From Methanobacteriota archaeon (lineage in GTDB: Archaea > Thermoplasmatota > Poseidoniia > Poseidoniales > Poseidoniaceae): 22,805 nucleotides of DNA. Below, one piece after another: positions 89-22,285 of the stretch (its first letter is position 1; each line of letters begins with the position of its first letter). Where the stretch lies: assembly GCA_018650165.1 (NCBI GenBank), contig JABIGM010000023.1:1-22805 (forward strand). The letters run 5' to 3'. The notes under the pieces were generated by a model. That model ran no database searches. It was not told the origin of the DNA and worked only from the letters and a program-made list of their open reading frames with translations. Position numbers and translations under genes: made by a program.

Positions 89-1744
89 GTGATTGTAATC
101 GATATAAAATCCACAGCCAACAAATTACTGAAAGGTGATGTGAAAGGTGCGGCTAAGGATGTTAGCCATCAATTAGAGCGCACGATTGGTCTTGTTGGTG
201 TAATTATTATTTCACTATCAGCAATGCTAGGTTCTGGTTTGTTCGTATTACCATCTCTTGCTGCAGAGATGATGGGGCCGGGTATTTGGTTAGCATATGT
301 CCTTGCAGCATTAGTCGTCTTGCCTGGTGCGATTTCCAAATCCGAACTCGCTTCAGCAATGCCTACTTCCGGAGGGGATTACATCTACATCGAGCGAACT
401 TATGGTCCACTGTTCGGTACTATCGCAGGATTGGGGCTATGGGCCTCATTCCTCCTGAAAGCAGCATTTGCATTAATTGGCCTTTCAGCATACATGCTTG
501 TAGTAACGATATATTTCGATATAGAAATTGACATGCGTATTGTATCCTTAGTGGTCTTAACATTAGTTGTAATAATCAATATTCTTGGAGTAAAGAAAAT
601 CAAAGCGGTTCAGGCACCAATTGTTGGATTAGCTGTCCTTTTGCTAATGTTCCTATCCTTTAAGGCCCTAATCTTCGCCGATATTGACCTCAGTCTTCCT
701 GCAACCTCTGCATTTGAAGCAACTCCGTATACCTTGGCCGAAACAGCAGCATTCGTATTCGTCGCCTATGCAGGAGTGACAAAAGTCGCAGCAATCGCAG
801 AAGAAGTAAAAAATCCTGGTAGAAATCTCCCTCGTGGAATGATTATTTCATTGGTAGCAGCCACTGTACTATATTCTGCTGTAGCGTACATGTTGATGGC
901 AACCTTAGATGGAGTATGGTGGCAAGTAGATGGTGAAACAGTTGAAGACCCTATTCGACTATTCGCAGAACACCTCGGTGGTAGTACAATCGGCCTAATT
1001 GCAGCAATCCTTGCAATTTTCACGATGGCCTCGATGGCACTTGCAGGAATTTTAGCAGCATCGAGATATCTCTTTGCAATGGCGAGAGATAATTTGTTGC
1101 CACAAGCATTGGAAGATGTAAATGCCAAATTTGAAACTCCACATTGGCCGATAATACTCACTGGATTTATGATGGGGCTTGCGATACTATTCTTGCCGGT
1201 GAAAGATGTAGCAAAACTTGCATCTGGATTTCAAATAATGATTTTCATCGTAGTAAATTCTTGTGTTATTGTCTTGAGACAAGTAAAAACCGGACATGAA
1301 TGGTACCAGCCAACATATACTTCTCCATTTTATCCATTCATCCAAATTTGGGGAATCGTCGGCGGCATCATTCTAGTCATCGTGATCGGTTCCAAGGCAT
1401 ATATGGGCGCAGGTGCCGCAATTGTACTCGGATTAACTTTCTATACACTATATGGACGAAAGCATGCGCATCCAAGAATAACACCATTTACTACATTCTG
1501 TAACGAATTCCGAAATCCTTCAGGAGTTGAACACAACCGACGCGAGGTTGCATTCCATGCTGCAGATATGGGTGGTAAAGGACACTTGACTTTGAAGGAG
1601 TTCCAAGTGGCAATGCGTGCTCTTCACTTCCCATTTAGTGTTGAGGAATGCCGAATTATTTTCCATGAAGCGGACAATGATGAAACCGGTGTAATCGATA
1701 TAGATGATTTCTTGGAAACATTTGAGAAAGCCGAAATTGATTAA
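89..1744 (+). CDS. APC-superfamily amino acid permease with C-terminal EF-hand pair (551 aa)
   Basis: TM1 motif 'LERTIGLVGVIIISLSAMLGSGLFVLP', 'ELASAMPTSGGDYIYIERTYG', 'FVFVAYAG...AEEVKNPGRNLP' and about 12 hydrophobic segments. The C-terminus has loops DMGGKGHLTLKE (nt 1565) and DNDETGVIDIDD (nt 1673). GTG start; the exact start is uncertain. Confidence 0.9.
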   Translation: MIVIDIKSTANKLLKGDVKGAAKDVSHQLERTIGLVGVIIISLSAMLGSGLFVLPSLAAEMMGPGIWLAYVLAALVVLPGAISKSELASAMPTSGGDYIYIERTYGPLFGTIAGLGLWASFLLKAAFALIGLSAYMLVVTIYFDIEIDMRIVSLVVLTLVVIINILGVKKIKAVQAPIVGLAVLLLMFLSFKALIFADIDLSLPATSAFEATPYTLAETAAFVFVAYAGVTKVAAIAEEVKNPGRNLPRGMIISLVAATVLYSAVAYMLMATLDGVWWQVDGETVEDPIRLFAEHLGGSTIGLIAAILAIFTMASMALAGILAASRYLFAMARDNLLPQALEDVNAKFETPHWPIILTGFMMGLAILFLPVKDVAKLASGFQIMIFIVVNSCVIVLRQVKTGHEWYQPTYTSPFYPFIQIWGIVGGIILVIVIGSKAYMGAGAAIVLGLTFYTLYGRKHAHPRITPFTTFCNEFRNPSGVEHNRREVAFHAADMGGKGHLTLKEFQVAMRALHFPFSVEECRIIFHEADNDETGVIDIDDFLETFEKAEID

Positions 1745-4305
1745 GATACTCTTGTCCAATCACCCGATTCACTGACCTGCCATGATGTAAGTTCACCACT
1801 TGAATCGATATACCATCCAGTTTTTCCTTGTTCTGTTCCCGGTGCTGCTTGCATTATTCCAGTGCGCTTTGCCTCAGCAGTCAAACGTTCTCTAAGTTCA
1901 GCTTTCGTTTCTCCCTTCGGGGAAGTATCGTATTCAACAACTTCTTTTGGTACTTCTGAAAAGGCGCCCTTAGTTTTGAGTTCTTCATCTAAATCGTCTG
2001 TGTCATCCAGATAATCATCTTCCCAATATTCATTGGATTCAATTTCACCTTTCATTCTTCGAATGAGTACTAGCATTATTGCAATGAATAATAATATGAT
2101 TATGGAAACCATAGTCAGTGCAGTATTAGAGTCGCCTAAACCACCTCCAAATAAAACCGCATCAACATCAAAGAATCTTTGAGCCACGAGATCATTCCAA
2201 TAGGCATTACAAGATTGTGATTGACCTGCTTGGTCAACATTCACTTGGTAAGTATCACCTGCAAGGTGTGTCACTGTGCCAACAGTACATTGGATATCAA
2301 CTTCATCCGATGGAACATCGACTCTATTTCCTACCTGGTCAATAGCATAGATTCGTACAATCATCTTACTACCTTCTTCAGGATTTTGTTCAGGTATATC
2401 GGCTAGAAGTCTAATCGGTTCTCCCGGTGAAACAGTGACTGTTATGTCACGAGTTGCAGAACCAGTTAGCAATCGAATATTCCATTCACCAACTTCACCT
2501 CCCTCAATCATCCAGTAACCATCTCCTCTAGAGGATTGGTAGACAATCCCCTGAGGGTCATCGAATTCAAATTCAACATTTGTAGCCAAGGCGAGATTTC
2601 CATGTACGTCAAGTGCGGAGATTGTAAGTTCAACCTCTTCACCACTCACAACAGCGACACCTTCATCGTAATCTGTTGAAATGTGCCTCGCAGTACCAGC
2701 GATTACCTCGACGTCAGTAATTGCAAAAACACCTTGCGCCATTGCCCTAATTTCGTGCATTCCAAGAGATGATGGTTCCCACTTATTGTTTGCTAATCGG
2801 ATTTCCATAGTCATGTCATTGCCATCTATAACCCAAGTAAGTAGAACGTTTTCCAAATGATTACCATACTCATCTTCAAAGATAGGTAGAAGTTCAAGCA
2901 CACCATCTGATGGCACACGAGTTCCACTTTCAGGGAGAATTATACGCGCTAATTCACCCGATGTGATATTGAGGACAGAGTCAACACTGTGCACCGTTTG
3001 GGTTTCATTGTCAAACCAAGTGGCAGAAACTGAAAAATTCCCCATTGCCCCCGGTCTCAATTGTTTCCAGCCATCATGGTCTTCTGGACCAAGTTCTGGA
3101 TCAATAGTCCAAGCACCATTCACCGACCGTTGATTTCCAGCAGCATCATATCCTGAAATTGAAGCGACTATCGAGTCTCCTGAGCGAAGAATATCTTCAG
3201 ATAGTAATATGTCGATACCGATAATTACGCCTTGGATTACACTAACTTGCATTGTCGCAGAGAAACCTTGGTCAGAGACACCAATTGTCCATTCCCCAAT
3301 CCGTGAGGGAATCCACACAACGGAATCACCATCCATCGATAGTGAGCCCGTAGGAACCGTCCAATTCGATAGAGGTAAGATTACTTCACCTGTGTTTCCT
3401 AGAACATCAGTACGAATTGCAGAAAGAATTACCTGTGAGCCAGTTCTTGCCTGTCCGACATTCATTTCGAGATCTAGACCTGTTGCTTTAGCAGGTAATA
3501 CACGAATAGTTCCGCTTCCGTTAGCCCCAGATGTGCTATTGACACTAATGTTCCATAAGCCGGGAGCTCCTCCATAGTAAACCCCGGTTGGAGAAATAGA
3601 ACCATTCTCTACAGACCAAGTAAGAACACCTGCCTTAGAAATCCCAACTTCGTTACCCTTTGCATCTTTAGCAACCGGTAGTATCTGGAGTGTACTTCCA
3701 CTCTGAACAGTTTGGCCATATGGTATATCGAGAGTTTTCGGGCTTCCTGGAACCACGTTGAACACAACTTGTGTTTCGAGTTCAAGATGTATGATGCGCA
3801 TTGTAGTATTACCGATATTTTCAGGTGTCCAAGTATGGTTGAGATAGTCAATAATTCCATTTTGACACCTCCATGTTAAATCACCTGTAACTGAATTATT
3901 GGCTCTGTCGATTAGCGTAGCATTGAGTTGAACCACATCGTCAACACTTACCTCTGTGGTATTGAATGCAGTTCGAATTCCAACTGGCCACCCTGCCATT
4001 ACGTTTATCGAAGTAGTTGAGTTTATACTTCCACTCATCGCAGTAATCGTGGTTTGCCCAGCAAGACCTGGCGTGAATAGACCTTCACTATCGATGAAGC
4101 CAGAACTAGTAGACCAAATTACAGGCTCATTGATTGGAGAGCCGGAAGAATCTTTCACTACTGCAGAAAACCGAACTGCTTGATCTGCACTCACACTTTG
4201 AGTGTGAGCATCAATGTCAATACTTGCCGGGGTTGCAGCCGTTGCAGGTGATGCGATATGTGCCACTAATAGAATGACCAAGAAGGGTAGTATCCGATTT
4301 TTCAT
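1741..4305 (-). CDS. Secreted, C-terminally membrane-anchored surface protein with 8 Ig-like repeats (854 aa)
   Basis: Signal peptide MKNRILPFLVILLVAHIASPATA; eight ~90-aa beta-rich repeats each with a D-x-x-G-N-like turn; TM helix LTMVSIIILLFIAIMLVLI; acidic tail; strong SD upstream. Confidence 0.85.
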   Translation of the reverse strand: MKNRILPFLVILLVAHIASPATAATPASIDIDAHTQSVSADQAVRFSAVVKDSSGSPINEPVIWSTSSGFIDSEGLFTPGLAGQTTITAMSGSINSTTSINVMAGWPVGIRTAFNTTEVSVDDVVQLNATLIDRANNSVTGDLTWRCQNGIIDYLNHTWTPENIGNTTMRIIHLELETQVVFNVVPGSPKTLDIPYGQTVQSGSTLQILPVAKDAKGNEVGISKAGVLTWSVENGSISPTGVYYGGAPGLWNISVNSTSGANGSGTIRVLPAKATGLDLEMNVGQARTGSQVILSAIRTDVLGNTGEVILPLSNWTVPTGSLSMDGDSVVWIPSRIGEWTIGVSDQGFSATMQVSVIQGVIIGIDILLSEDILRSGDSIVASISGYDAAGNQRSVNGAWTIDPELGPEDHDGWKQLRPGAMGNFSVSATWFDNETQTVHSVDSVLNITSGELARIILPESGTRVPSDGVLELLPIFEDEYGNHLENVLLTWVIDGNDMTMEIRLANNKWEPSSLGMHEIRAMAQGVFAITDVEVIAGTARHISTDYDEGVAVVSGEEVELTISALDVHGNLALATNVEFEFDDPQGIVYQSSRGDGYWMIEGGEVGEWNIRLLTGSATRDITVTVSPGEPIRLLADIPEQNPEEGSKMIVRIYAIDQVGNRVDVPSDEVDIQCTVGTVTHLAGDTYQVNVDQAGQSQSCNAYWNDLVAQRFFDVDAVLFGGGLGDSNTALTMVSIIILLFIAIMLVLIRRMKGEIESNEYWEDDYLDDTDDLDEELKTKGAFSEVPKEVVEYDTSPKGETKAELRERLTAEAKRTGIMQAAPGTEQGKTGWYIDSSGELTSWQVSESGDWTRVS

Positions 4306-4353: not shown

Positions 4354-7300
4354 TTAGTCCGCCCATTCATTCCAATCTGTAGTTCCAGCGTCACGGTACC
4401 ACCAGATTCCATCCTTATCTTCTGCCCATTCGGTACCATCTTCATCAACACGGAAGTCAGACATCCAGTCTTCCTGTTGTGGTTCTGCACTTGGAGGTGG
4501 TCCACCAGGGCCCGGACCTACTGGCCCTGGGCCAACTGGACCAGGTTCCTGAGTCGCTTCAGATTCATCGTAATCATCATCATAGTCGTCATCGTCTTCG
4601 TCATCATATTCTGAGCCGCCAGATCTCAGTACCATTACTACTACTACTAGAAGAACAATGATCACTAGAATTCCAAGAACTCCACCCGCATAGTAGATTG
4701 GTCCACCAGATTCAAAGAATCCCATGATATTACCTTCAACCATTATCGTATCTGATTTTTCAACATTATGTACGGATATAGTTACAGTTTGCTCTTTGTC
4801 ATCGAGTGTAGTGATTGTCCAATGGCCATTTTCTCCAGCCTTTGCAGTCATACGACCAGTTAATTTGACTTGGGTTTCCGGTGGCACAGGTATCTCATTG
4901 CCCCATGCATCGAAGGTTTGAACATCGATTTCAAAAGACTCTAGTTGTGCTACTGAATTATCAACAATCTCAAATTCAATTAGGGAAACTGTTTGGTGCG
5001 GAGTGACAGTCACTGTCCATTCGCTTTCAGCACCACTCGGTGAGCGGAATTTGAAGGTATGATCTCCGGCAACAGATGCACTCCAATTATAGATGCCATC
5101 TCCTCCTTCAATTGTAGAAGCAGGTACAGTCTTCCAAGTGTTTGGAAGAGAAAGTTGAGTCCACAGTACACTCTCCAAGAAGGTATTACCATCAGCATCA
5201 GTTCCAGTGATTGTGAGGGTATACTCATCACCAGCCTTAGCAGAATTTGCAATAACATCAATGTCTACGCTCTCAGCATCTCCATGTGAAACATGAATCA
5301 CACTTGTGTTAGTGATATTGTAACCGTTTTCTGAAATCGCCCAAGCAGTAATTTCCCAATTACCAACAGTACTAGCTTCCCATATGCCACCATTTCCTAC
5401 GATAATTGACGTAATGTTTTGCGTTTCATCTGTGTCTGTATTAGTCAAAGTATACTCTACAATTGAAGGGTCAATTGCATTGTTATCATTGTCAAATAGT
5501 TGCGGTGAGAATTGTAATTGATTATCTGCATCAATATTTTGTTCAGCATCTCCAGGTCCCGGTACTGAGAGTTTCACCAAGCTACCTTGTGATACTGTAA
5601 TATTCAGAGCGACTTCAAGGGTAATGTTTTCATCAGTGTAGGTTGCTAATAATTTGTAAGCGAAATCCGATGAGAAGATTGGAACGAATAGTGTAGTACT
5701 TCCATAAGTCATCTCTTGAAGTACACTTTGGTCAGAGAATTGAATATGCTCGATGGACCAAACTACATTTTCAGTCCAACGATTTCCATCGTAATCTTCA
5801 GCCTTAACCTTAACAGTAAGTTCATCATCAGCAGTAATTGAATTATTTGTCCATGTTGAATCAATAGAATCTATTACCAATACAAGTCCAGTAATTGCAC
5901 CTTCCTCTACTTGGATAATTACACTACTTTCCATTCCTGCATAACTAGCAGTTAGTGTCTTCGAACCGCGTCTTTGAGCATGCCATTCAGCAGGCTGTCC
6001 CGCAACAATCATTCCATCACTAACAGTCCAATTCGCTAATGGTAGTTCAACCGATAAACGGTTGCCCATGACATCGATACGAGTAGTGTTGAGCAGAACT
6101 ATATCATCAGCTGTAACATATGTTTCAGATGCATCTACCTCTAGACTTACCATCATTCCGTGTTCGACTGTGATTGAAATTTGGTGCGCAATACCTCCTG
6201 TTGAAAGCATGTCGATATTGTAATTTCCAACAGTCATTGCAAAGTAAGTTCCGTTAGACTCGGTAAATGTTCCACCACCAGCGGTCCAAGTAATTCCACC
6301 GCCGACTGAAAGATCCAACAGGTTACCGAATTGGTCATGCAATGTCCAATTTAGTTGACAGGTTTCTCCAGCATGTACAACATCTTCACAACCAGTTGTA
6401 ACATAATTAGTTGGCAGACCACCAACAACCTCGATGATTACATCAACAGTTTGACCAATCCATCCCACTGTGACAGTCTGTGTTCCGGAGTTGTATGGGT
6501 AGAATGTTGTTCCAGTCATAGTTCCATTAGATGGTGTATATGTGATTGTCATTCCAGGCACAATATTTCCATGTTGATCATGGATTACTGCAGTAATTGT
6601 AAAAGAATTATCCGCTGTAATAGTTTCTTCAGTATCTTCGACAACAAGCGTATCAGGTTCTCCAGGTGTTACGGTAATAGATTCTGTAGCGCATATGACT
6701 CCAAAGCATGCGGTAATACTGTGAATGCCAACATGTTCAGGAGTAAACAAACCAGCGGCATCGATAGAGCCGCTACTTGAGGACCATACCACTCCTTCAG
6801 AAATCATACCTCCTACTGCATCATTCAAAATATGAGAGAATTGAACCGTAGTATCTGCATCAGTAGTAGAACCTCCCGGAGATACTGAAACCGAATGAAC
6901 ATCAGTGTAATTCATATGGATTACAGGTCGAAGGTTAAGAGCACTTTCACTTGAGAAAAATTCTACCCACGCAGGTGCACCTGCCAGTGAAGTTCCAATG
7001 ATTACCCACGCGTGATCACCGTCAATCAGCATACCCGAATGGCCTAATTCTAACCATACATTTGTCACACCGGCAGTAATTGTAGTGGTTGAAATTGGAT
7101 TTGCATCATACTCTACACCCGGTGCCATTCCACCAGTATTCCATGGGATACCACTTGCAGAATCATTCCATGTTGAGCCGGATTGTGTCCAGGAATTAGT
7201 CAATAATTTGTGGACACTTAATGTCAAAAATCCAGCAGGTGCCGACTCGATATTCAATTGAATCGAAGCGGAGTGTATTTTTGCACCAGGTGGTAATGGG

Positions 7301-10300
7301 ACTTGACCATTATCTAATCCGACAATCATTCGACATTCGGAGTTTGCTCCTTCACAATTTGTTCCAACCATTAGTGACTCAGAGCCATGGTTTTGATTTG
7401 CATATCCGCTGCCTATATACGAATCTCTAACGTTAGTGTGACCTAACTCAGCAACTTCGTTTCCAGTTTGGAACAAGTATGTCCAAGTATTATCAAAATT
7501 GTAAGAATGGTTGACTGGAGAGCCAATCGCAAAGGTTCTACGACTCGATGAAGGTCCAGGAATAGAACCGTTGATGGCTTGTACCCACCAACTGTATACA
7601 TCACCAGCAACTAAATCTTGACTGAAGGTAAATGTGGTTCCATTTATTTCACTGTTTTGCCAAGATTTGTATGTTTGTTGACCGTCTGTTTTTGCAATAG
7701 TAACAACATATCCCGTTGCATTAGTAACACTGTTCCAAGTTAATTGTGGCCTGTCTAGAGATTCCAATACCCACGTGCTTGTGTTGTACAGAATTGCTCC
7801 GTCAGCAGGATATGTCAATACTGGTTGAGCCGGAGGGATTACTCCATCGACATTGTCAACATAATCTAGAACCAATTTAGGTTTCAGGGAACCAGAGTGC
7901 AGGTTATCATAGAACGAATGACCTGACATTGGAGTACCTACAGATTTCAGCATAATTGTCATTGTAGTATTTCCATTAGCAATATTAGATTGTGCAAGGG
8001 ATGTAAGGTCCCACACTTGCCAACCATTTGGTGGAACAATTAGCATCGTAGAGCGAGTAATTTCACTACTCAAACAAGATGGTGCATTATTCCAAGTGAC
8101 CGAGCTTTCACTAAATGTGTCACAAGCATGTGCACTAACCGTTAGCGATGATGTTCCAGTGACATTGACTCTGTATAGCGACAATAAGGCACTAGTCGGA
8201 GTCATTGCGGCTGGGAATGGCAATTCAGAGAGGTCAAATGACAACATTACCATCGATTCACCAGATCCTCCTGATGAAATTCCTAATTCGAGGCGACCAT
8301 TGTTACCTAAGGAATTGCTAGCGCGGTTGGAGTCAATTGTCGCATCAGGTACGCCTGGTAGTGATGTAGTCTCAGAAAATACCGAGCCGTCATACAAAGT
8401 GATTGAATGATTTCCAGCACCATCGTCAGTACCTAATGCGCCGGGGACTCGGAATGAATTAACACCGGACCAAGTACCTAAACGGTGGTCTTGTTCAGCT
8501 CTTACTCTCCAATAAACCCAGTAGTCTCCCCATGTGATATTATCTGGACTGGTGTACGCAAGTTCAGAATAACTCCATGTACCATTGAAGGTTTCATTAT
8601 CGGTCAAATCATATAGCCATGTTTCATTTTCAGCAGTAAACAACGGTGTCTTAGATGATTGAATCACCCAGCGAGTTTCATTTGATTCAACTCCAGACCA
8701 ATTCAGTGTAACATCATCAGCCCCTCTTGGTCGAGAAGCAGTTTGATTCCAAACCGTTGTGCCATCTGCTGGTGTCAAGCCGCTTGGTGAAGACGGAAGC
8801 CATTGTGTACCAGTTCTCCATTCCAATTTCAATTCAGGGCGTTTACTTTTATCGATATTATAATCGCTACTAGCAAAATGCCATTCATCGTCGGTATCAT
8901 CAACTATCCAGAACATCAGGCTAACTTTGTCTAAGCCAGCCGCATGTGCATGCTGCACTGCATAAGTAACATCCAGTGTGACATAATTGTCCTGATAATC
9001 CATCGAGACGATTTCAAATGGAACATCGCATTTTGGATTTGTCCATGCGGAATTATTCCCAGTTGGGCCATTCATTGTTGCATTTTGGTTCCATGCATCC
9101 TGAATTTCACAAACGGCAACACGTACAGTTTCTTGATTAAATTCGCCACCACTGATTTTATGCAACTCAATCTCAGCTCCAATCATCTCATGAGAACCGG
9201 GGATAGGCATTGTTGACCAATCGATCATCATGATACTTTCAGTGTAGTGGTTACGTGATGTTGTCACATTCGAGCGTCCAATAATCAATTCATTTCCGCT
9301 TTCATATGCGGAATTTGATGAACCTGTATCGAGATAAGTATCCATGAAAATTGCAGGGTAATCCAATGCATCGACGATTTGGCCTTCTTGCAAATTGATG
9401 TACGCATCTGTTGAATTGACACTACTGCCTGTGTTTGCAGGAATGTGGAAAATTGTATCGCTACCTCTTGCCCCCAGTATGTCATTAGTAATTGGTTGTA
9501 CAAACCATTCGTATGAGTTTCCGGATGAAAGATTAGATTGTGGGGTCCAGGTCATATTGGTTATATCCCACCCTTCAGCGGAATCTCTACTGTCGTATAC
9601 AGTCCATCCCTCTCTATCATCGGAGTAATCATTCCAAAGGAATATTTTCCAATCATCAACATTGGCTGAGTTTGAATGAGTCCAAGTGAAATTAGGTGTG
9701 TCTCCGGGCAGAAGGGCATGTGTTGATGTATCCCAGATTATTTCATCAATGGTTGGATTGCTATTTGCTCCCGCTATTTCCGGGGAGGCTGCACTGCCAC
9801 TTGTCCATGTCAAATTTAGCCATGGACGGTCACTACTTGTTCCTGCAGTTGATGTAAAGATTGTTTGTCCTTCCCCAATCGAACCAACGATTACGAGCGA
9901 AAGGTGTGTTTCACCATTTGCAAGGGCAGCTTGAACCAACTCAGTCACATCAAAATTCATCCAATCAGCGGAAGCACTACCCTTAATGTCAGACATTTGA
10001 CCCTTGTCAGATGCTCCCATTGCGCCGGGTAAGGACCAATTATTCGAACCATCATATGTTGTTCCATTTGCACTAGTGTTCCACCCTACGAGGGCCGGAT
10101 GAATTGAGACGGCATTTCCGGTATCCGAACCAAACTCTGCATACAAATTGAGCACCGCTTCGGAAACATGAGCGTTTTGTGGGTTGGGCAATTCCGTTAG
10201 CGGGATCTTCAACAAGCCAGTTGCATCTTCGCCAGAACTACTGGTTCCTACTGTGATATTGGTAGATGATGATTGGTCTGCATTAGCGCCTATGCCAGAA

Positions 10301-13300
10301 TCAGCAACCCAGGTATCAATGAAATTAGGAAGATTGAGCGATGGCATTGCCATTCGGTGATGTAACTCTACAGCGGTAGAGTTTGAACTTACATTCCAAG
10401 TCGTTAATTCAGGTAGGAGGAAGTGGAAGGAGTTTGACCAATTTCCAATTTGGTTTGTTGAAGTAGTCGCCCTTACTCGCCAATTCCAAGTATTTCCTGT
10501 TGCTAATTGCGTTGAGAGGTCGAAGGTCATATTTGCAATACTAAATCCAGTATCTGTCCAACTAGTTGCCATAATCAAATTTTGTGAATCAAAATTAGGA
10601 GAGGTGTCTAATTCGACGGACCATCCTCCAACAGTAATTCCGCTTGCACTGAAGTTCCATGAGAGTTGAGGGGTCTGGTCAGGCGCTAGATTCATTCCAG
10701 ATTCAATGGACCAAGAACCATTCAATGGAGAGAATGGAACAGGTTCAGCAGGGAGTGCATTAGAGCCCGGTACATACACAAATGAAATTTCTGGACGCTT
10801 AGTTGCATCAGCATTATTTGGATAGAACAGTGCACTTCGGTCATAACCGCTACCAACGCCTACAACTCCAAGAACCAAATCCACTTCTCGATTTTCTCGC
10901 ATTGCATTCTGTACAGCGAGAGTAATATCCAATTCTACCCAGTCACCGCTTGCATATGAGGTTCCGAGGGTTTCAGAATCGAGCAAACCTGCTCTCTCCC
11001 ATCCTTTAGCACCGGCTGTACCCCACGCGTTAACGCCGTCATATGTCGCCCAAGTTGCGCCATCTTCAGTCCAATTGTGCTGTTGACTTTCCCAGGCACC
11101 AATAATTGGAGATCCTGATGGGTAGTCATAAAGTTTCATTTTCAAGGTTGCTGTTTTCACAGCATATCCTGCAGGAAGTAGATGGCTAGTGAGGTCACAA
11201 CCAAGAAGGATTGCAGTTTCAGCAGGGAATGTATTGTACATGACTTGCATGTCACTTTCGCCATTGTAGTTACTTGTCGATGCTCCGCTGTCAATGTAGG
11301 TGTCCTTACAATTAGGGGCATCTCCGGCAGTAGTTGCATTACCATGGGATAATCGTAATCTGTGTTCATCACCGAGCAAATACTCAGATTCTAAGTTCGA
11401 GACAAGGAATGAAGAAGAATCCCACCACGAATGGTGGCCGTTAGAATTTCTTTGTGCTAATCTCCAGTGATACATTACGCCCTCATCGAGTGAGTTTGAA
11501 CCCGAAATCGACCAATTGCCATCAGATGGGGCAAAGTCATTATCGACAGCAGTATCAAACGAATGGATGATGTTTCTGTACTCAGCATCTGTTGAAATTT
11601 GCATAAGCATATCGCCACTCCATGTGATTGTGCCATCCCAAAGTAAAGTCGGAGTCGTATTACCTGACAAATTATTCACACTTACATTCCAGACTGAATG
11701 CCCATCAAGTGGTGATTGATGATTTGGAATGGTTGGAGGGCCACTACTGCCCCATGCATACATGATGTCGAGAGTTGGTTCACTACAACTTGTTGTTTCA
11801 GTAGAACATATTTTCACCCACTGAGTGGATGATTCGGCTATTCCAGAAGTTGAAGCTACCATCATTAATTCAAGAGACTCGGAAAGACTTGAACCTGCTT
11901 GGTTGGCTAGATTATTTTCGTCAATCCAATGCTGCACAGCCACAGTGATGTCAGAATCTATGCTGGACGACGTTTGGTCACCTACAAATGAACTTACGGA
12001 CATGGACGGTACTCTGCCCCCATCATCCCAGTAATATGAGCCGTTGTGTTTTCTCCATGTGACTCCGTTTTCAGTCCACTTTTCACCATCCATTACGTGG
12101 ACGCTAACCTTGGCCGAGCCGCTGTATGATTCACGAGTCATACCAAATGTAGCCGACATAACAGATGTGTTGCTGTGTAGTCCTATGTCGTCCAAATTCA
12201 ATCTTATCAAGCCGTACTGATCTGTACTCGATGATGAGCCTACAGTGAAATTTTCATCATTACCCATGTTACTATTCTTTGCAGCACCATTCGAATCTAT
12301 GTATGTGTCTTCAATGGTTTCTGCACTTATGCCAAGGTCGCTAAATCCAATAGAAATCGTGGCAGTATTGTTCCCATTGTCCGTGACGCTGTGCTTTGGA
12401 AGGTGGAAATAACCAATATTCCATTCGCCGATAGCATCGGTTGAATCGATAGAACGCATCCTGTAATACATAGTTGTAGCATTATCCAAAGCATCGCCCG
12501 AAGGTACTGTCATTACCCCATTACCGGAACTTAGAGTGAACATAGATGCATTGTCTTGAGTTGTATAGAACCAAGTATCGTCAGCACCAGTAAAGAAATT
12601 CTCGGCTAGTGAAAGTTGAACTTGGGCATTGGTTCCTGTTAGGCCCTCCCATGATAGTTCGGGGGTTGTTGCTGCAGTTAGGATAAATTGGTCTGAATCC
12701 ATTAGAGCCGCACCATCTTCAACGAAATTTGGGGTCAATGAGCCACCATTGGCGTGAGTGCCATTTTGGTGGATAACTTCGAGATATGGCCTGCTGTTAG
12801 TATCACTTGATTCGGACATGTGACACTCATACTCAGAGTCCGTTGCTGCCAAAATTAAATCGAAAGTACTACGATTATTGATTACTGCATCTTGTACCAC
12901 AGCAGTCACATTTATCGAAAATGTATGATTGGCGTACCCCTGGAATGGGGGCTCCCAGTCACTATGGTCGGAGGTTGCATCTGCCCCAGGCAGGCCCCAA
13001 TTGGAGCCGGAATCTGGATTATTCCAATTTGCATTTGATTCACTCCATGACCGTTTCATCTTTGAATTGTAAATACTAATTGTTTCAAGATTAACTGGGT
13101 CAATGCCACACGTTAATTTTAGATTTGCAGAACTTACTGTGTCACCAGTCGAGATTGTATTATTGAACGAAATTAGTATCCTTGATTCACCACTTGTCGA
13201 CGCCCCCAATCCAACAGTCCCTTCATTTCCATAATTCGTGGACGGGTTGGCTGAATCAAGAGCAGTGTCCTTATTAGCATTAGTCGTAGATGTGGTTTGA

Positions 13301-13440
13301 GACATTGTGTCATCATCAAGAAGTATATCATTTGACCAATCTGGTACTGCTTGTGGGAGAGCGATATCGGCAAATAAAAACATCAAAACCATTACTAGTG
13401 AACTTACGATTCTTCGGCGGTCGCGGGTGTTCGATAACAT
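4354..13440 (-). CDS. Giant cell-surface (glyco)protein: 7 DNRLRE/CBM96-like domains alternating with FN3/Ig-like linkers, 8 Ig-like stalk repeats, TM anchor, acidic/Pro-Gly/Trp-rich tail (3028 aa)
   Basis: Signal peptide. Seven repeats begin with D-[TSA]-x-[ILV]-x-[SDT] (DTALDS, DTYIDS, DTYIDS, DTWVADS, DTYLDT, DATIDS, DSYIGS), contain A-x-L-x-L and W-x-[EQ]-x-x-x-[TN]-W cores, and end in [RKE]-P-x-L/I. Many N-x-S/T sequons. TM segment GVLGILVIIVLLVVVVMVL. Confidence 0.85.
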   Translation of the reverse strand: MLSNTRDRRRIVSSLVMVLMFLFADIALPQAVPDWSNDILLDDDTMSQTTSTTNANKDTALDSANPSTNYGNEGTVGLGASTSGESRILISFNNTISTGDTVSSANLKLTCGIDPVNLETISIYNSKMKRSWSESNANWNNPDSGSNWGLPGADATSDHSDWEPPFQGYANHTFSINVTAVVQDAVINNRSTFDLILAATDSEYECHMSESSDTNSRPYLEVIHQNGTHANGGSLTPNFVEDGAALMDSDQFILTAATTPELSWEGLTGTNAQVQLSLAENFFTGADDTWFYTTQDNASMFTLSSGNGVMTVPSGDALDNATTMYYRMRSIDSTDAIGEWNIGYFHLPKHSVTDNGNNTATISIGFSDLGISAETIEDTYIDSNGAAKNSNMGNDENFTVGSSSSTDQYGLIRLNLDDIGLHSNTSVMSATFGMTRESYSGSAKVSVHVMDGEKWTENGVTWRKHNGSYYWDDGGRVPSMSVSSFVGDQTSSSIDSDITVAVQHWIDENNLANQAGSSLSESLELMMVASTSGIAESSTQWVKICSTETTSCSEPTLDIMYAWGSSGPPTIPNHQSPLDGHSVWNVSVNNLSGNTTPTLLWDGTITWSGDMLMQISTDAEYRNIIHSFDTAVDNDFAPSDGNWSISGSNSLDEGVMYHWRLAQRNSNGHHSWWDSSSFLVSNLESEYLLGDEHRLRLSHGNATTAGDAPNCKDTYIDSGASTSNYNGESDMQVMYNTFPAETAILLGCDLTSHLLPAGYAVKTATLKMKLYDYPSGSPIIGAWESQQHNWTEDGATWATYDGVNAWGTAGAKGWERAGLLDSETLGTSYASGDWVELDITLAVQNAMRENREVDLVLGVVGVGSGYDRSALFYPNNADATKRPEISFVYVPGSNALPAEPVPFSPLNGSWSIESGMNLAPDQTPQLSWNFSASGITVGGWSVELDTSPNFDSQNLIMATSWTDTGFSIANMTFDLSTQLATGNTWNWRVRATTSTNQIGNWSNSFHFLLPELTTWNVSSNSTAVELHHRMAMPSLNLPNFIDTWVADSGIGANADQSSSTNITVGTSSSGEDATGLLKIPLTELPNPQNAHVSEAVLNLYAEFGSDTGNAVSIHPALVGWNTSANGTTYDGSNNWSLPGAMGASDKGQMSDIKGSASADWMNFDVTELVQAALANGETHLSLVIVGSIGEGQTIFTSTAGTSSDRPWLNLTWTSGSAASPEIAGANSNPTIDEIIWDTSTHALLPGDTPNFTWTHSNSANVDDWKIFLWNDYSDDREGWTVYDSRDSAEGWDITNMTWTPQSNLSSGNSYEWFVQPITNDILGARGSDTIFHIPANTGSSVNSTDAYINLQEGQIVDALDYPAIFMDTYLDTGSSNSAYESGNELIIGRSNVTTSRNHYTESIMMIDWSTMPIPGSHEMIGAEIELHKISGGEFNQETVRVAVCEIQDAWNQNATMNGPTGNNSAWTNPKCDVPFEIVSMDYQDNYVTLDVTYAVQHAHAAGLDKVSLMFWIVDDTDDEWHFASSDYNIDKSKRPELKLEWRTGTQWLPSSPSGLTPADGTTVWNQTASRPRGADDVTLNWSGVESNETRWVIQSSKTPLFTAENETWLYDLTDNETFNGTWSYSELAYTSPDNITWGDYWVYWRVRAEQDHRLGTWSGVNSFRVPGALGTDDGAGNHSITLYDGSVFSETTSLPGVPDATIDSNRASNSLGNNGRLELGISSGGSGESMVMLSFDLSELPFPAAMTPTSALLSLYRVNVTGTSSLTVSAHACDTFSESSVTWNNAPSCLSSEITRSTMLIVPPNGWQVWDLTSLAQSNIANGNTTMTIMLKSVGTPMSGHSFYDNLHSGSLKPKLVLDYVDNVDGVIPPAQPVLTYPADGAILYNTSTWVLESLDRPQLTWNSVTNATGYVVTIAKTDGQQTYKSWQNSEINGTTFTFSQDLVAGDVYSWWVQAINGSIPGPSSSRRTFAIGSPVNHSYNFDNTWTYLFQTGNEVAELGHTNVRDSYIGSGYANQNHGSESLMVGTNCEGANSECRMIVGLDNGQVPLPPGAKIHSASIQLNIESAPAGFLTLSVHKLLTNSWTQSGSTWNDSASGIPWNTGGMAPGVEYDANPISTTTITAGVTNVWLELGHSGMLIDGDHAWVIIGTSLAGAPAWVEFFSSESALNLRPVIHMNYTDVHSVSVSPGGSTTDADTTVQFSHILNDAVGGMISEGVVWSSSSGSIDAAGLFTPEHVGIHSITACFGVICATESITVTPGEPDTLVVEDTEETITADNSFTITAVIHDQHGNIVPGMTITYTPSNGTMTGTTFYPYNSGTQTVTVGWIGQTVDVIIEVVGGLPTNYVTTGCEDVVHAGETCQLNWTLHDQFGNLLDLSVGGGITWTAGGGTFTESNGTYFAMTVGNYNIDMLSTGGIAHQISITVEHGMMVSLEVDASETYVTADDIVLLNTTRIDVMGNRLSVELPLANWTVSDGMIVAGQPAEWHAQRRGSKTLTASYAGMESSVIIQVEEGAITGLVLVIDSIDSTWTNNSITADDELTVKVKAEDYDGNRWTENVVWSIEHIQFSDQSVLQEMTYGSTTLFVPIFSSDFAYKLLATYTDENITLEVALNITVSQGSLVKLSVPGPGDAEQNIDADNQLQFSPQLFDNDNNAIDPSIVEYTLTNTDTDETQNITSIIVGNGGIWEASTVGNWEITAWAISENGYNITNTSVIHVSHGDAESVDIDVIANSAKAGDEYTLTITGTDADGNTFLESVLWTQLSLPNTWKTVPASTIEGGDGIYNWSASVAGDHTFKFRSPSGAESEWTVTVTPHQTVSLIEFEIVDNSVAQLESFEIDVQTFDAWGNEIPVPPETQVKLTGRMTAKAGENGHWTITTLDDKEQTVTISVHNVEKSDTIMVEGNIMGFFESGGPIYYAGGVLGILVIIVLLVVVVMVLRSGGSEYDDEDDDDYDDDYDESEATQEPGPVGPGPVGPGPGGPPPSAEPQQEDWMSDFRVDEDGTEWAEDKDGIWWYRDAGTTDWNEWAD
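4492..4545 (-). repeat. Pro-Gly low-complexity repeat (PGPVG)2-PGPGG-PPP in the cytoplasmic tail of the giant protein
   Basis: Translation PGPVGPGPVGPGPGGPPP; codons are diversified, so the repeat is at the protein level. Confidence 0.75.
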
Positions 13441-17838: not shown

Positions 17839-20790
17839 TCATTCAGTTTCCTCAGAACTTTCTTCGGATTTAGAATCGTCTCCGGTATCTTCAGAACCAG
17901 ATTCTGCCGCAATTATTTCTTCCATGGTTTCATCAGTTGAAGGTAAATCATCCATCTTAACCATTGGTTCTGGCTGTGTAAGTTCAGTCCATTTTGTCTT
18001 ACTGCGAGATTCTTCGGAATCCTCTTTGAAGATCAAAGCAGCACCAGCAAATAATGATACGAATCCAAGAGCCCAGAAGCACAATGTAACGTAATCTACC
18101 CAGTGGTCAAAGTTTGTAAAGTAGGCAAAAGAATCTTGATTAGTCACAATTTGTGATTCCATTGTTTCAGCAGTTTCATCATCAAGTTCTCCATCGGTTT
18201 CGATGACGAAAACTTGTGTTAAATCAGCCATTGTTGGTGGAGTCTGCTGCTCCCATGTTGGGCGTGTATCAAGCCAGAATGTGGATTTAGATTCCCCTGC
18301 AATTATCGCTCCACTAAGTTGTTCTACCTTGACCTCAACATCGCTGCCAAAGTATACTGGGAGAGCGCCTGGTGTTGCATCAAGCAGGTCGCCATTATTG
18401 ATTAATTTCGCTTGTATTGGGCGAGTGAGCGGATCCATTGATGCAGTACATATGTCGACAGGGATACCTTTCAGAGTGCCTTCTTTGTCACAGCTCAGTT
18501 CAGCAGTACCATAGCCTGAGAGATCGATTAAATCCCCCTCTCCGGTGATGAAACCGCCAGATGTTTCTCCACGTATTTCAGCGGTGATTAATCCAAATGT
18601 GGCCATTTCTTTTTCGACAGATCTCCATCCAACATACTCACTATCTCCAACCATTACAGTTTCTCCTTTGTCACAGGTATCGGTCTCACCTGTGCAGATG
18701 GTGATAATTCCAGGGTCTCCAGTCGATATGCCTCCATCGACATATGCATCTGAACCGAAATATGTTTCATTAGACTCTAGGCTTGTCCACCCCACGGTCA
18801 TATCTTCAGAATTATCACTTGCGAGGTATGCATTTACTGGGTCATGCCATCCAAGCAACCAATTATCAACTGACTGAGTTAGGTAGCGCGAGGTTCCAAA
18901 GGAATCGATAAGGAACTGTGGGACGAAGTCTTTGAACACGATTTCCATGAGGAGTAACCGAGTTGCATTTGCTGCATTTTCATCTATTCCGTAAATCGAA
19001 GACACAGTTTCAGCGTTCCAAACTTGTGCTTCAGCGCGCTGTCCTGTTGTGAAATTAATTGGGATCGATTTTCCGCTCAACTCGCCGTACAGGAACATTG
19101 CAGCACCTTTTGCGGTTGCCAATCCGTATGGACCAAATAGCATGTTAGAACTTTGATTTTGAGTTAGGTTTACCGATTCACCAGCAGGGAATCCAAGGAT
19201 GCCACTCCCCCACATGCCGCCAGCATTCAGTGAATATTGCATGTATGTATTGTCGATTGGATTTAGTGAACCAAAGGTCTGGTTCACAAATTCTGAGGCT
19301 GTGATGTATCCTTCTCCACCAACCAGAATAAGTGGCAGTGCAGCAATATCTCCTGCCCAATCGCTACATAATGATTTTATTGCAGCGTGTTGGCTTTTGG
19401 TAATGCCGTAGAGTTCCATTGCATCATCTTTCTTCATATCTAGGAATGTAGATAATCCAAAGGAAGTGCCAGATTCACTGACTGCAAGGATTCCTAGCGG
19501 GTCATCAGTTCCGTCCCCTAGATGCAATACATTTCTGGCTACATCATTATCGATTTCTAAATCCATCAACCACCTAAAGCGCTGAGTAAGATTAATCGCA
19601 TCTTCGTCACCGTTTGTTAGGTAATTATCATCGAGAGCCCCATAATCCTGCATTAATTTGCCCATTCCTCCATATAGGGTCCAATCCCTTGCCAGTGTAA
19701 TGTTCAAATCAGTAGGGTGGGTAAAATCCCAAAGTTCAGCACGTTCCAGCGTAACTGAGTTTTCAGGGTCTGCTAGTATCTCTTCAAGAGATTCGGGCTC
19801 ACCCATCGAAGCATAAACCAGTGGTCCCATGTAATTTAGTAAAGAAATATTTTCTCCATCAGGTCCAACCGCATGATTGAATGCATAGTCAAGGTCTAAA
19901 ATCCACCTAAAAGAGGAGGTTTCATTATCTTCTATACCGTTGTTATTTGGATCATATTCGCTCATCCAATTCTCATCAGCTTCAAGTACGCCATCTCCAT
20001 CATCATTCCATTCATGCTGATTCCACTGTGGGTGAACGCCACCCGAACTAAGATAAGTTGCAGTGTCATCGTCAAGGAAATTTTCCCCATAGGCTTCATC
20101 GAGCAAGTCAAACATTCCATCTAGGTAAAATGACTCCGCATTATCTCCTTCTAATGTATTTACAATTGCACCTTCGTATGCTCCTTCGGCAGCAGTTAGA
20201 TTCTGAATGTTTCCTAAATTGTATTGTGCTACATTGTGAGCGGGTGCAACAAGTTGGAAATGAGTGTCAAGGACACCAGATGCAAATCCAATTTTTGTAA
20301 TTTTCATGACCTCAGCAATTGCAGTTCCCGTAGCGCCAACTACTTGTGGCGTAAATGCAATATTCAGTTGGCTGACTTCTGTTGAGCATGCAACAGCGGT
20401 GTCAGTCGCACATGCATATGAAGTGGTTTGTTTGTATGTGAGTAAACCATTTTTGATATCGTAATTATCCACCTCTTTCTTGAGGGTGACATCATAAGTT
20501 ACAGGGCCAATTGTTTCATATTGAGGCTGTGAACCATTTGCAATGACATCATCGACATTCCATATATGCCACGCATAGAAATCACGTTGACTAGTAGATT
20601 CCTTCCAATCATCATTTATCTCGGTGCACAAGACATTTTCACAAATGTCATCTTTTGCTTTCATGGACACCGCATCTTCAACAGCAGCAGGGACCGCACT
20701 GGTTGCCATCGGTCCTAAAACTGCCAAGTTCATTGTAACCATTAGAAGGCCGGCGACTACCATAGTCATGTTCAGTGGCTTGAGACTCAT
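17839..20790 (-). CDS. CD36/SR-BI/LIMP-2 (class B scavenger receptor)-like membrane protein with a large insertion (~983 aa)
   Basis: N- and C-terminal TM helices. Ordered CD36-like motifs W....S.R.F...N...V...P.....GP.TY, LNIA, QSVDNWLLGWHDP, LKGIPV, VEQLSG, ETDGELDDETAETMESQI. Start placed at ATG 20790 because a promoter-like motif lies 24 nt upstream and the track's start at 20871 overlaps pyk. Confidence 0.75.
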   Translation of the reverse strand: MSLKPLNMTMVVAGLLMVTMNLAVLGPMATSAVPAAVEDAVSMKAKDDICENVLCTEINDDWKESTSQRDFYAWHIWNVDDVIANGSQPQYETIGPVTYDVTLKKEVDNYDIKNGLLTYKQTTSYACATDTAVACSTEVSQLNIAFTPQVVGATGTAIAEVMKITKIGFASGVLDTHFQLVAPAHNVAQYNLGNIQNLTAAEGAYEGAIVNTLEGDNAESFYLDGMFDLLDEAYGENFLDDDTATYLSSGGVHPQWNQHEWNDDGDGVLEADENWMSEYDPNNNGIEDNETSSFRWILDLDYAFNHAVGPDGENISLLNYMGPLVYASMGEPESLEEILADPENSVTLERAELWDFTHPTDLNITLARDWTLYGGMGKLMQDYGALDDNYLTNGDEDAINLTQRFRWLMDLEIDNDVARNVLHLGDGTDDPLGILAVSESGTSFGLSTFLDMKKDDAMELYGITKSQHAAIKSLCSDWAGDIAALPLILVGGEGYITASEFVNQTFGSLNPIDNTYMQYSLNAGGMWGSGILGFPAGESVNLTQNQSSNMLFGPYGLATAKGAAMFLYGELSGKSIPINFTTGQRAEAQVWNAETVSSIYGIDENAANATRLLLMEIVFKDFVPQFLIDSFGTSRYLTQSVDNWLLGWHDPVNAYLASDNSEDMTVGWTSLESNETYFGSDAYVDGGISTGDPGIITICTGETDTCDKGETVMVGDSEYVGWRSVEKEMATFGLITAEIRGETSGGFITGEGDLIDLSGYGTAELSCDKEGTLKGIPVDICTASMDPLTRPIQAKLINNGDLLDATPGALPVYFGSDVEVKVEQLSGAIIAGESKSTFWLDTRPTWEQQTPPTMADLTQVFVIETDGELDDETAETMESQIVTNQDSFAYFTNFDHWVDYVTLCFWALGFVSLFAGAALIFKEDSEESRSKTKWTELTQPEPMVKMDDLPSTDETMEEIIAAESGSEDTGDDSKSEESSEETE

Positions 20791-20845: not shown

Positions 20846-22285
20846 TTACTCTGTTCCAGAAATAGTCCCATCTGGTTCTAGCCGGTACAACCGCACAGTA
20901 CTAGTTGCTCCACGCATGGCAAGCGGCGAGCCAGATATTGCTACAATCCTCTCTCCCGATTTCAGGGACCCATTATCAGCAAGCATGCGCACAGCGGCTT
21001 GCATGGTTTGCGACCCTCTTTCATACTCTTCAACCATGACAGATTCAACACCAGGTAACAAATTCATTCGGCGTGCTGCTCTAAGACGATCCGTAACAGC
21101 AGTCACCACAAAATCAGGGCGATAACCTGCGACCAATCTAGGAGCATTACCGTGTTGTGTGGCAACAAGAATGTGCCTAGCCCCAGATATTTTTGCCAAT
21201 TCTACTCCCGCGTGTGCAACTGCGCGAGTTGAACGGAATTTTGAGAGTGCTCCCGGTGTACCACCTGAGGTCTCTAGCCCTTCCTCAGTTGCAGTAACTA
21301 TCCTAACCATTGTTTCAACTGTAGTCACCGGATGATTACCTGATGCAGTCTCTCCAGATAGCATAACTGCGGTGCCACCGTGACGTATAGCCGTTGATAC
21401 ATCACTAACTTCGGCCCTAGTGGGCCTTGGATTAAGAGTCATAGATTCTAGCATTTGAGTAGCAACGATAACAACCATCCCTCTCATCAATCCGGCATCA
21501 ATTATGTTTTGCTGCGCTAAAGGGACCTGCTCTAATGGAATTTCCACTCCCAAATCACCTCTTGCAACCATTACACCATCTGCAGCATCAAGGATAGAAT
21601 GTAGATTTGTTAGCGCCGATGGATGCTCGATTTTAGCAATAATTGGAGTATGCTTTCCTGCAGCTTTAACCGCCTCTTTTGCAGGGCGTAAATCTTCAGC
21701 ATTTCTAACATACGAAACCGCAATCCAGTCGGCACCAGCCTCAAGAGCATGGGCCAGTGCCTTCTCATCTTTTGGACCAATGGCAGGTAAATCGATTGTA
21801 GTGCCTGGAACATTTACTCCTTTCCTACTGGTTAGAGGTCCACCGTCTTCGACAAGACAGTCTACGAACGAACCTACTTTTCCACCTGTAGCAGTTACAG
21901 ATAACCGAATTAATCCATCAGCGAGAAGTACGGAGTCTCCAACTTTCAATTCCGCTGAAAGGCCGGCATATTCTACCGGTATTTCTGGGCCATCATGTTG
22001 AGAAAGGCCGCACAGCAAGCGTAGAGATTCACCATTTCTAGTTAATCGCACTCCGGGAAATTCTCCCAAGCGTAATTTAGGACCCGGTAGATCTGCAAGA
22101 ATACAAGTTGTTCTGCCATCCTTTTCTAGTGAGCGTATACGCTCATACAACTCGGTTTTTTGTTCAGGCTCTCCATGTGAATAATTGAGTCGGAAAACAT
22201 TAGCTCCTGCATCAAACATTGAATTTAGATTATCTAAATCCCAAGATGCTGGGCCGATTGTGGCAACCACCCGAGTTCTTCTCAT
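20846..22285 (-). CDS. pyk: Pyruvate kinase (479 aa)
   Basis: TRVVATIGPAS, FRLNYSHG, ILADLPGPKLR, RKGVNVP, IIAKIE, GVMVARGDLGVE, ATQMLESM, PTRAEVSDV, MLSGETA. Confidence 0.97.
   Translation of the reverse strand: MRRTRVVATIGPASWDLDNLNSMFDAGANVFRLNYSHGEPEQKTELYERIRSLEKDGRTTCILADLPGPKLRLGEFPGVRLTRNGESLRLLCGLSQHDGPEIPVEYAGLSAELKVGDSVLLADGLIRLSVTATGGKVGSFVDCLVEDGGPLTSRKGVNVPGTTIDLPAIGPKDEKALAHALEAGADWIAVSYVRNAEDLRPAKEAVKAAGKHTPIIAKIEHPSALTNLHSILDAADGVMVARGDLGVEIPLEQVPLAQQNIIDAGLMRGMVVIVATQMLESMTLNPRPTRAEVSDVSTAIRHGGTAVMLSGETASGNHPVTTVETMVRIVTATEEGLETSGGTPGALSKFRSTRAVAHAGVELAKISGARHILVATQHGNAPRLVAGYRPDFVVTAVTDRLRAARRMNLLPGVESVMVEEYERGSQTMQAAVRMLADNGSLKSGERIVAISGSPLAMRGATSTVRLYRLEPDGTISGTE

Follow-up and report, generated by a model that had tools for sequence, protein, structure and literature searches.

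Does a marine archaeon encode a genuine member of the CD36 or class B scavenger receptor (SR-B) family and, if so, what would such a protein be doing there? The question is raised by a gene at positions 17839 to 20790 of a 22,805-nucleotide stretch of DNA (the window, meaning the whole stretch that was analysed), which spans positions 1 to 22,805 of contig JABIGM010000023.1 in the Poseidoniales (Marine Group II) assembly GCA_018650165.1, family Poseidoniaceae. An earlier note made from the sequence alone had read the product as an archaeal homolog of CD36. Our analysis indicates that the protein is almost certainly a native member of the family, with a predicted CD36-type barrel that carries a large helical head at its apex, and lipid capture is put forward as the favoured explanation of what it may do.

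A search with the Pfam CD36 profile (PF01130), which the earlier note had named as the check to make, returned a match of 45.6 bits (E 4.7e-12; gathering cut-off 26.5), the strongest part of which places residues 56-156 on profile positions 37-134. The same profile matched 41 of 41 diverse homologues, with a best E of 1.3e-19, and gave no match in 14 control genomes. Residues 618-711 fall on profile positions 144-228 weakly in this protein (E 0.049) but relatives reach E 9.9e-7 and 3e-4, and for some paralogues a whole-genome search found positions 133-261 independently. The motifs quoted in the note as CD36-like are all present and in the order given there (residues 60-101, 139-144, 639-651, 771-779, 822-828 and 864-881).

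Single-sequence phmmer against PDB sequences gave chance matches only and a family profile was required. A profile built from 27 archaeal homologues and searched against 177,635 PDB sequences matched LIMP-2 and CD36 only (E 0.02-0.07) in an alignment that is colinear at both ends, HMMER aligning the N-terminal motif to LIMP-2 and, below threshold, the C-terminal 'ELDDETAE..ESQI' motif to LIMP-2 'HIDKETASRLKSMI'. Searched exhaustively with phmmer, 1.84 billion cluster representatives yielded just 150 relatives, one of them eukaryotic (E 2.3e-5), a dictyostelid LIMP-2/Lmp protein with 27% identity over 154 N-terminal residues. When the archaeal and dictyostelid families were aligned with hhalign the probability was 98.6% (E 7.6e-16), and by part the E value was 1.9e-22 for the N-terminal cores and 0.002 for the C-terminal ones, with off-diagonal controls at E 0.055-0.94. 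The Pfam match, the profile that hit only LIMP-2 and CD36 in the PDB and the dictyostelid bridge together bear out the proposed homology.

The gene and the parts of its product are given below, with confidence values of the AlphaFold2 model as predicted local distance difference test (pLDDT) scores.

17839..20790, minus strand: complete coding sequence of the CD36-family membrane protein, 983 amino acids plus stop, from the list of open reading frames and its translation
20701..20769, minus strand: predicted N-terminal hydrophobic helix, residues ~8-30, hydropathy window scores 1.5-2.0, AlphaFold2 helix 5-42
20356..20664, minus strand: N-terminal part of the CD36 beta-barrel core, residues ~43-145, with cysteine pairs C50/C55 and C127/C135
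18886..20355, minus strand: apex 'head', residues 146-635, ~490 residues, mostly helical
19912..20004, minus strand: acidic low-confidence loop inside the head, residues 263-293, pLDDT <50 at 263-267 and 273-293
18103..18885, minus strand: C-terminal part of the CD36 beta-barrel core, residues 636-896, with cysteine pairs C699/C706 and C767/C781
18025..18102, minus strand: predicted C-terminal transmembrane helix, residues ~897-922, hydropathy up to 2.23, AlphaFold2 helix 897-921
17842..18024, minus strand: acidic disordered tail, predicted cytoplasmic, residues 923-983, pLDDT 29-38, rich in E, D and S

Hydropathy analysis finds two hydrophobic segments only, at residues ~8-30 and ~900-922, the second followed by the 61-residue acidic tail, and both coincide with helices of the AlphaFold2 model, so that the CD36-type topology read in the note, with a transmembrane segment at both ends and a large extracellular loop between them, stands. 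This predicted layout fits the operational definition of an SR-B as an ectodomain with one transmembrane helix per end (PMC10715195). The N-terminal helix would anchor the protein in the membrane, as in CD36, or serve as a signal anchor that is not cleaved; its cleavage as a signal peptide is also possible. The whole protein contains 163 acidic and 45 basic residues, its ectodomain being very acidic. The eight ectodomain cysteines form four close pairs (50/55, 127/135, 699/706 and 767/781) which are invariant in 27 homologues and near-invariant (>=90%) in 125.

The AlphaFold2 model, calculated from a 125-sequence alignment, has a mean pLDDT of 81 and a predicted template modelling score of 0.70. 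Its ectodomain is predicted to form the asymmetric antiparallel beta-barrel of the family, with strands in the N-terminal core at residues 64-76, 91-111, 116-127 and 138-142. The comparison by Foldseek that had been suggested as a test recovered the LIMP-2/CD36 fold, all of the top 12 matches being LIMP-2 or CD36 (E 1.5e-6 to 2.5e-4), and in the structural comparison of this model no unrelated structure scored above 6.6. In the model the helices of the two termini pair up as a hairpin, and matches to helical hairpins span residues 1..927.

The head interrupts the CD36 profile between positions ~134 and ~144 and stands in the model on two long stalk helices (residues 146-200 and 604-631). The counterpart position in human CD36 is the apex with its ligand-binding three-helix bundle, and it is there that the 490-residue helical head sits, its stalk helices being possible counterparts of alpha4, alpha5 and alpha7. 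The head is conserved across homologues with many invariant Trp, Gly and Pro residues, and the acidic loop at 263-293 is mostly missing in more distant homologues and is lost from the majority consensus of the alignments. Folded alone and compared with both solved and predicted structures, the head had no match beyond its own family. Ligand sensing in eukaryotic SR-Bs is located at the apex, and protist SR-Bs carry lineage-specific apex expansions at the same position, eukaryotic ectodomains ranging from 413 to 2,294 residues (PMC10715195).

In comparison with vertebrate CD36 (5LGD), LIMP-2/SCARB2 (4F7B, 4Q4B, 4TW0, 5UPH) and SR-B1 the protein is twice as long, has an archaeal host, carries the 490-residue head in place of the three-helix apex and shares 14-16% identity over the aligned core; its cysteine pairs are at most possible counterparts of the CD36 bridges. 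The closest eukaryotic sequences found are the dictyostelid LmpA, LmpB and LmpC proteins (~745-790 residues; P0255, P0284-P0298), which have a large insert at profile position 134/135, the same point as the archaeal head. The dictyostelid insert measures ~280 residues against ~490 in the archaeal protein, and the dictyostelid C-terminal half fits Pfam CD36 far better (162 bits overall) than the archaeal one. That the archaeal head might be homologous to the dictyostelid insert was considered and rejected, hhalign giving E 0.098, no better than the off-diagonal controls.

The protein is native to and long resident in Poseidoniales. PF01130 was found in 159 of 201 Poseidoniales genomes (71/99, 87/99 and 0/2 by family), and in a phylum-wide sample it was present in 77 of the 94 genomes of the two large Poseidoniales families and in 0 of ~307 Thermoplasmatota genomes from 48 other families. 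Complete single-contig Poseidoniales genomes carry the gene. A GTDB-wide pattern scan gave 308 relatives, and among the 80 of these that were listed 79 bear Poseidoniales-type labels (Poseidoniales, Poseidoniaceae, Poseidonia, Thalassarchaeaceae) or are unclassified Methanobacteriota, Euryarchaeota or Thermoplasmatota. The exception (L103) lies on a 6,099-bp contig, CAXRJJ010000082.1, of an alphaproteobacterial metagenome-assembled genome named 'Yoonia sp.'; it encodes a full-length homologue, 39% identical, and the contig is most likely a mis-binned Poseidoniales one. In the source genome (1.75 Mb, 80% complete) the gene is single copy and intronless, and on its 22.8-kb contig, with even GC content along the whole window, it has as neighbours an archaeal RFC small subunit, an SPFH protein and pyruvate kinase. 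This gene context and distribution exclude eukaryotic contamination, as the note had anticipated.

Twenty-eight archaeal copies were placed in a quick maximum-likelihood tree with seven eukaryotic sequences as the root. The tree largely splits the two organismal families (4 label changes vs 15.9 when labels are shuffled) and places the window protein in a genus-specific clade, with a second paralogue in that genus. Two genera, g5 and g22, yielded no PF01130 match in 9 genomes, and the family profile was likewise empty in 7 of their genomes (80-94% complete) while positive controls were recovered; the gene has probably been lost in both. Adjacent divergent CD36-like paralogues were seen in genus g20 on the Thalassarchaeaceae side (L042, and L014 at 5849-8461 on the minus strand and 8515-11124 on the plus strand), where one copy nests among sequences of the other organismal family with 100% branch support, which suggests transfer within Poseidoniales. 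A second copy in a complete single-contig genome (L010, G003:C1:1135615-1138217) matches the profile in three separate segments that lie in two open frames, 581 and 346 residues long, and may be frameshifted or decaying. A viral vector was also considered and set aside, IMG/VR holding no relative and BFVD no structural match at E <=0.001.

The origin of the family is a further question. SR-Bs have been surveyed across Eukarya only, and the survey traces them to the last eukaryotic common ancestor (PMC10715195). The statement in the earlier note that the family is regarded as eukaryotic has nevertheless to be softened, given that LmcA, a member of the actinobacterial DUF3068/PorA family (PF11271), has been recognised as a distant structural relative of CD36 since 2022 (PMC8972800) and that public pipelines already tag these archaeal proteins with PF01130. 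LmcA/PgfA (MSMEG_0317; 7N3V/7SHW) has a single protruding helix with neither apex bundle nor head, and the structural score of the archaeal model to it is half of that to CD36. Against the PF11271 cut-off of 29.5 the archaeal protein scores 14-17 bits (14.2 bits, E 0.028; 17.3 bits, E 0.0019), a sub-threshold match confined to residues 812-917 for which E 0.01 is reached by 2 of the 41 homologues.

Published work describes DUF3068 as a family found in actinobacteria only (PMC9678360). We found PF11271 in 58 of 301 Thermoplasmatota genomes, nearly all of them outside Poseidoniales (1/63 inside), so that within the Thermoplasmatota its distribution and that of PF01130 are complementary. These archaeal PorA proteins (L016-L025, for instance G409:C1:87154-89373, G226:C7:7556-9424 and G399:C22:4246-7278) are often 700-1100 residues long and many are tandem arrays of 2-4 PorA domains; in a sister lineage of the same class (family f4) the PorA profile is interrupted by a large insert. 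They are membrane-anchored, come from related archaea and belong to the same structural superfamily as the CD36-like protein, but have no BLAST or profile-profile similarity to it except at the transmembrane helix. Orthology with the insert-bearing f4 proteins was rejected, BLASTP and hhalign matching the transmembrane helix only, and from the sequence comparisons descent in situ between the archaeal PF01130 and PF11271 groups is unsupported. Further searches for eukaryotic relatives recovered the dictyostelids and one other protist protein only. A transfer from a eukaryote to the Poseidoniales ancestor, possibly displacing a PorA-type protein, would be the probable origin of the gene, and an older prokaryotic origin would be the less likely one, at one chance in four or slightly better.

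As to function, the explanation that we favour, and as a whole consider reasonably probable, is that of a native CD36-family receptor acting in lipid capture and tunnelling. By analogy with CD36, SR-B1 and LIMP-2 the head would take hold, at the cell surface, of a hydrophobic ligand or of a particle bearing lipid; fatty acids or other lipids would then travel along a tunnel inside the barrel to reach the cell membrane, where they would feed the beta-oxidation pathway of these heterotrophs. Tunnel, ligand and transport direction are inferred here from the known family members. Lipid or fatty-acid uptake is suggested by the homology taken together with beta-oxidation genes in the genome, and we put it at even odds or very slightly above. 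The source genome encodes 4 acyl-CoA dehydrogenases, 4 3-hydroxyacyl-CoA dehydrogenase proteins and one AMP-binding enzyme, and fatty-acid degradation genes are reported in all Poseidoniales genera by Rinke et al. (PMC6461757) and likewise in PMC6336850.

Several points weigh against this explanation. The half of the protein that follows the insert is by itself weak in sequence (Pfam E 0.049, hhalign E 0.002) and is assigned to the CD36 core because of the predicted structure and the stronger matches of paralogues. The head has no recognisable ligand-binding fold, and among the neighbourhoods compared across genera no lipid-metabolism gene is a conserved neighbour. As the gene was not found in genera g5 and g22, some Poseidoniales at least can do without it. 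Finally CD36-family proteins also serve as adhesion and recognition receptors, and the fold alone does not fix function.

In the strongest of the alternatives the protein is a recognition or adhesion receptor whose head binds a protein, a polysaccharide or the surface of a cell or particle, such as phytoplankton debris or vesicles, lipid tunnelling being secondary or absent. LIMP-2 binds glucocerebrosidase and the Dictyostelium Lmp proteins act in phagocytosis. The part elaborated in the archaeal protein is the apex, the ligand-recognition site of the family (PMC10715195), the invariant Trp, Gly and Pro residues of the conserved head would suit such a role, the window also encodes very large surface proteins with CBM96 repeats and particle attachment is an inferred trait of Marine Group II (MGII) archaea (PMC6336850). 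The head is however unlike any known adhesion or carbohydrate-binding fold and the strongly conserved barrel core suggests more than a stalk; moreover known members of the family can combine adhesion with lipid roles. We regard this alternative as unlikely, at about one chance in five.

Less likely again, and on balance improbable, is a role in outward lipid handling or envelope biogenesis, in which the cell's own lipids or lipid-linked precursors would be moved from the membrane to the outer layer. The model for this is LmcA/PgfA, proposed to move cell-wall lipids outward in actinobacteria. An essential envelope function would hardly be expected of a gene that was not found in two genera; genes for envelope synthesis are not linked to it, and a sequence-level link to the archaeal PorA proteins was not detected.

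A carotenoid or retinal scavenger supplying the chromophore of proteorhodopsin is a distinctly remote prospect. NinaD, SR-B1 and CD36 have a carotenoid scavenging role in animals. Rhodopsin (PF01036) was found in 121 of 201 Poseidoniales genomes and beta-carotene 15,15'-dioxygenase (PF15461) in 21 of 201, with 0/99 in family f3 and 0/10 in the genus of the window. Tully 2019 likewise reports most MGII as lacking beta-carotene dioxygenase (PMC6336850). The genus-level distributions of PF01130, PF01036 and PF15461 nevertheless show no co-occurrence, and the idea is not supported. The CD36-like gene occurs where no rhodopsin was found (g6 2/2, g12 2/2, g13 3/3, g20 8/8, g21 8/10) and is not found in g5 (0/6; rhodopsin 5/6) or g22 (0/3; rhodopsin 3/3), and the source genome, at 80% completeness, has no rhodopsin match.

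As a separate observation, neither PF15461 nor PF01036 was found in the source genome at that completeness.

An artefact, whether eukaryotic contamination or a chance or convergent resemblance without homology, has a negligible probability, for though the family is otherwise known from eukaryotes and the 'Yoonia sp.' contig of 6 kb shows that binning errors occur, the gene is an intronless one between archaeal genes at even GC, is present in complete single-contig genomes and has 308 GTDB relatives, and the Pfam, profile-profile and structural tests are concordant.

Taken with lipid capture as the favoured function, these results bear on how MGII archaea feed. MGII are uncultured and globally abundant, and no archaea are more numerous in the surface ocean. 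They are thought from their genomes to live on proteins and lipids and to our knowledge nothing has been named as their machinery for lipid uptake. A CD36-family protein found across the order would be a concrete candidate for such uptake. On a joint reading, to which we give rather less than an even chance, the protein would be the missing MGII surface route for fatty acids and other lipids from phytoplankton material, with the head as the capture device, and the gene would record either an ancient transfer between a eukaryote and the Poseidoniales ancestor or a prokaryotic root of CD36 linked to DUF3068/PorA.

The CD36 receptor family is in any case extended beyond eukaryotes, the 490-residue head is a structural target in its own right, and the archaeal PorA/DUF3068 proteins and the resemblance of LmcA to CD36 make it possible to address by phylogeny where the CD36 superfold arose and which way any interdomain transfer went. 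In the literature that could be searched no paper mentions CD36 together with Poseidoniales. To the existing PF01130 tags the present analysis adds the dictyostelid sequence bridge, the complementary distribution of PorA/DUF3068 in archaea, the pattern of paralogues and losses, the negative retinal test and a head that when folded alone has no detectable structural relative.

With regard to the setting of the gene, a family profile (A3) matches it with 1449 bits over 17995-20790. An alternative upstream start at 20871 would give a longer frame overlapping the pyruvate kinase gene (20846-22285), and the start is placed at 20790 because homologue alignments support it. The distance from the pyruvate kinase stop to this start is 55 nt and no clear TATA-like box was seen in the gap, so that the 'archaeal-type promoter' of the note is not borne out; the CD36-like gene may be co-transcribed with pyruvate kinase. 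No conserved operon partner emerged, the gene neighbourhood varying by genus, with Trm1, an AIR-synthase-related protein and an esterase in G003, TctA in G027 and Fpg in G014.

Other genes of the contig encode a DUF2237 protein, an amino-acid permease with EF hands and two very large surface proteins. Both of the latter lie a few kb from the CD36-like gene: at 4354-13440 on the minus strand a 3028-residue surface protein with seven CBM96 domains and, next after it, at 1741-4305 on the minus strand, an 854-residue protein with a weak Big_1 match. The permease, at 89-1744 on the plus strand, is of the APC family, with a pair of EF hands fused to its C-terminal end (Pfam EF-hand_7, E 2e-9).

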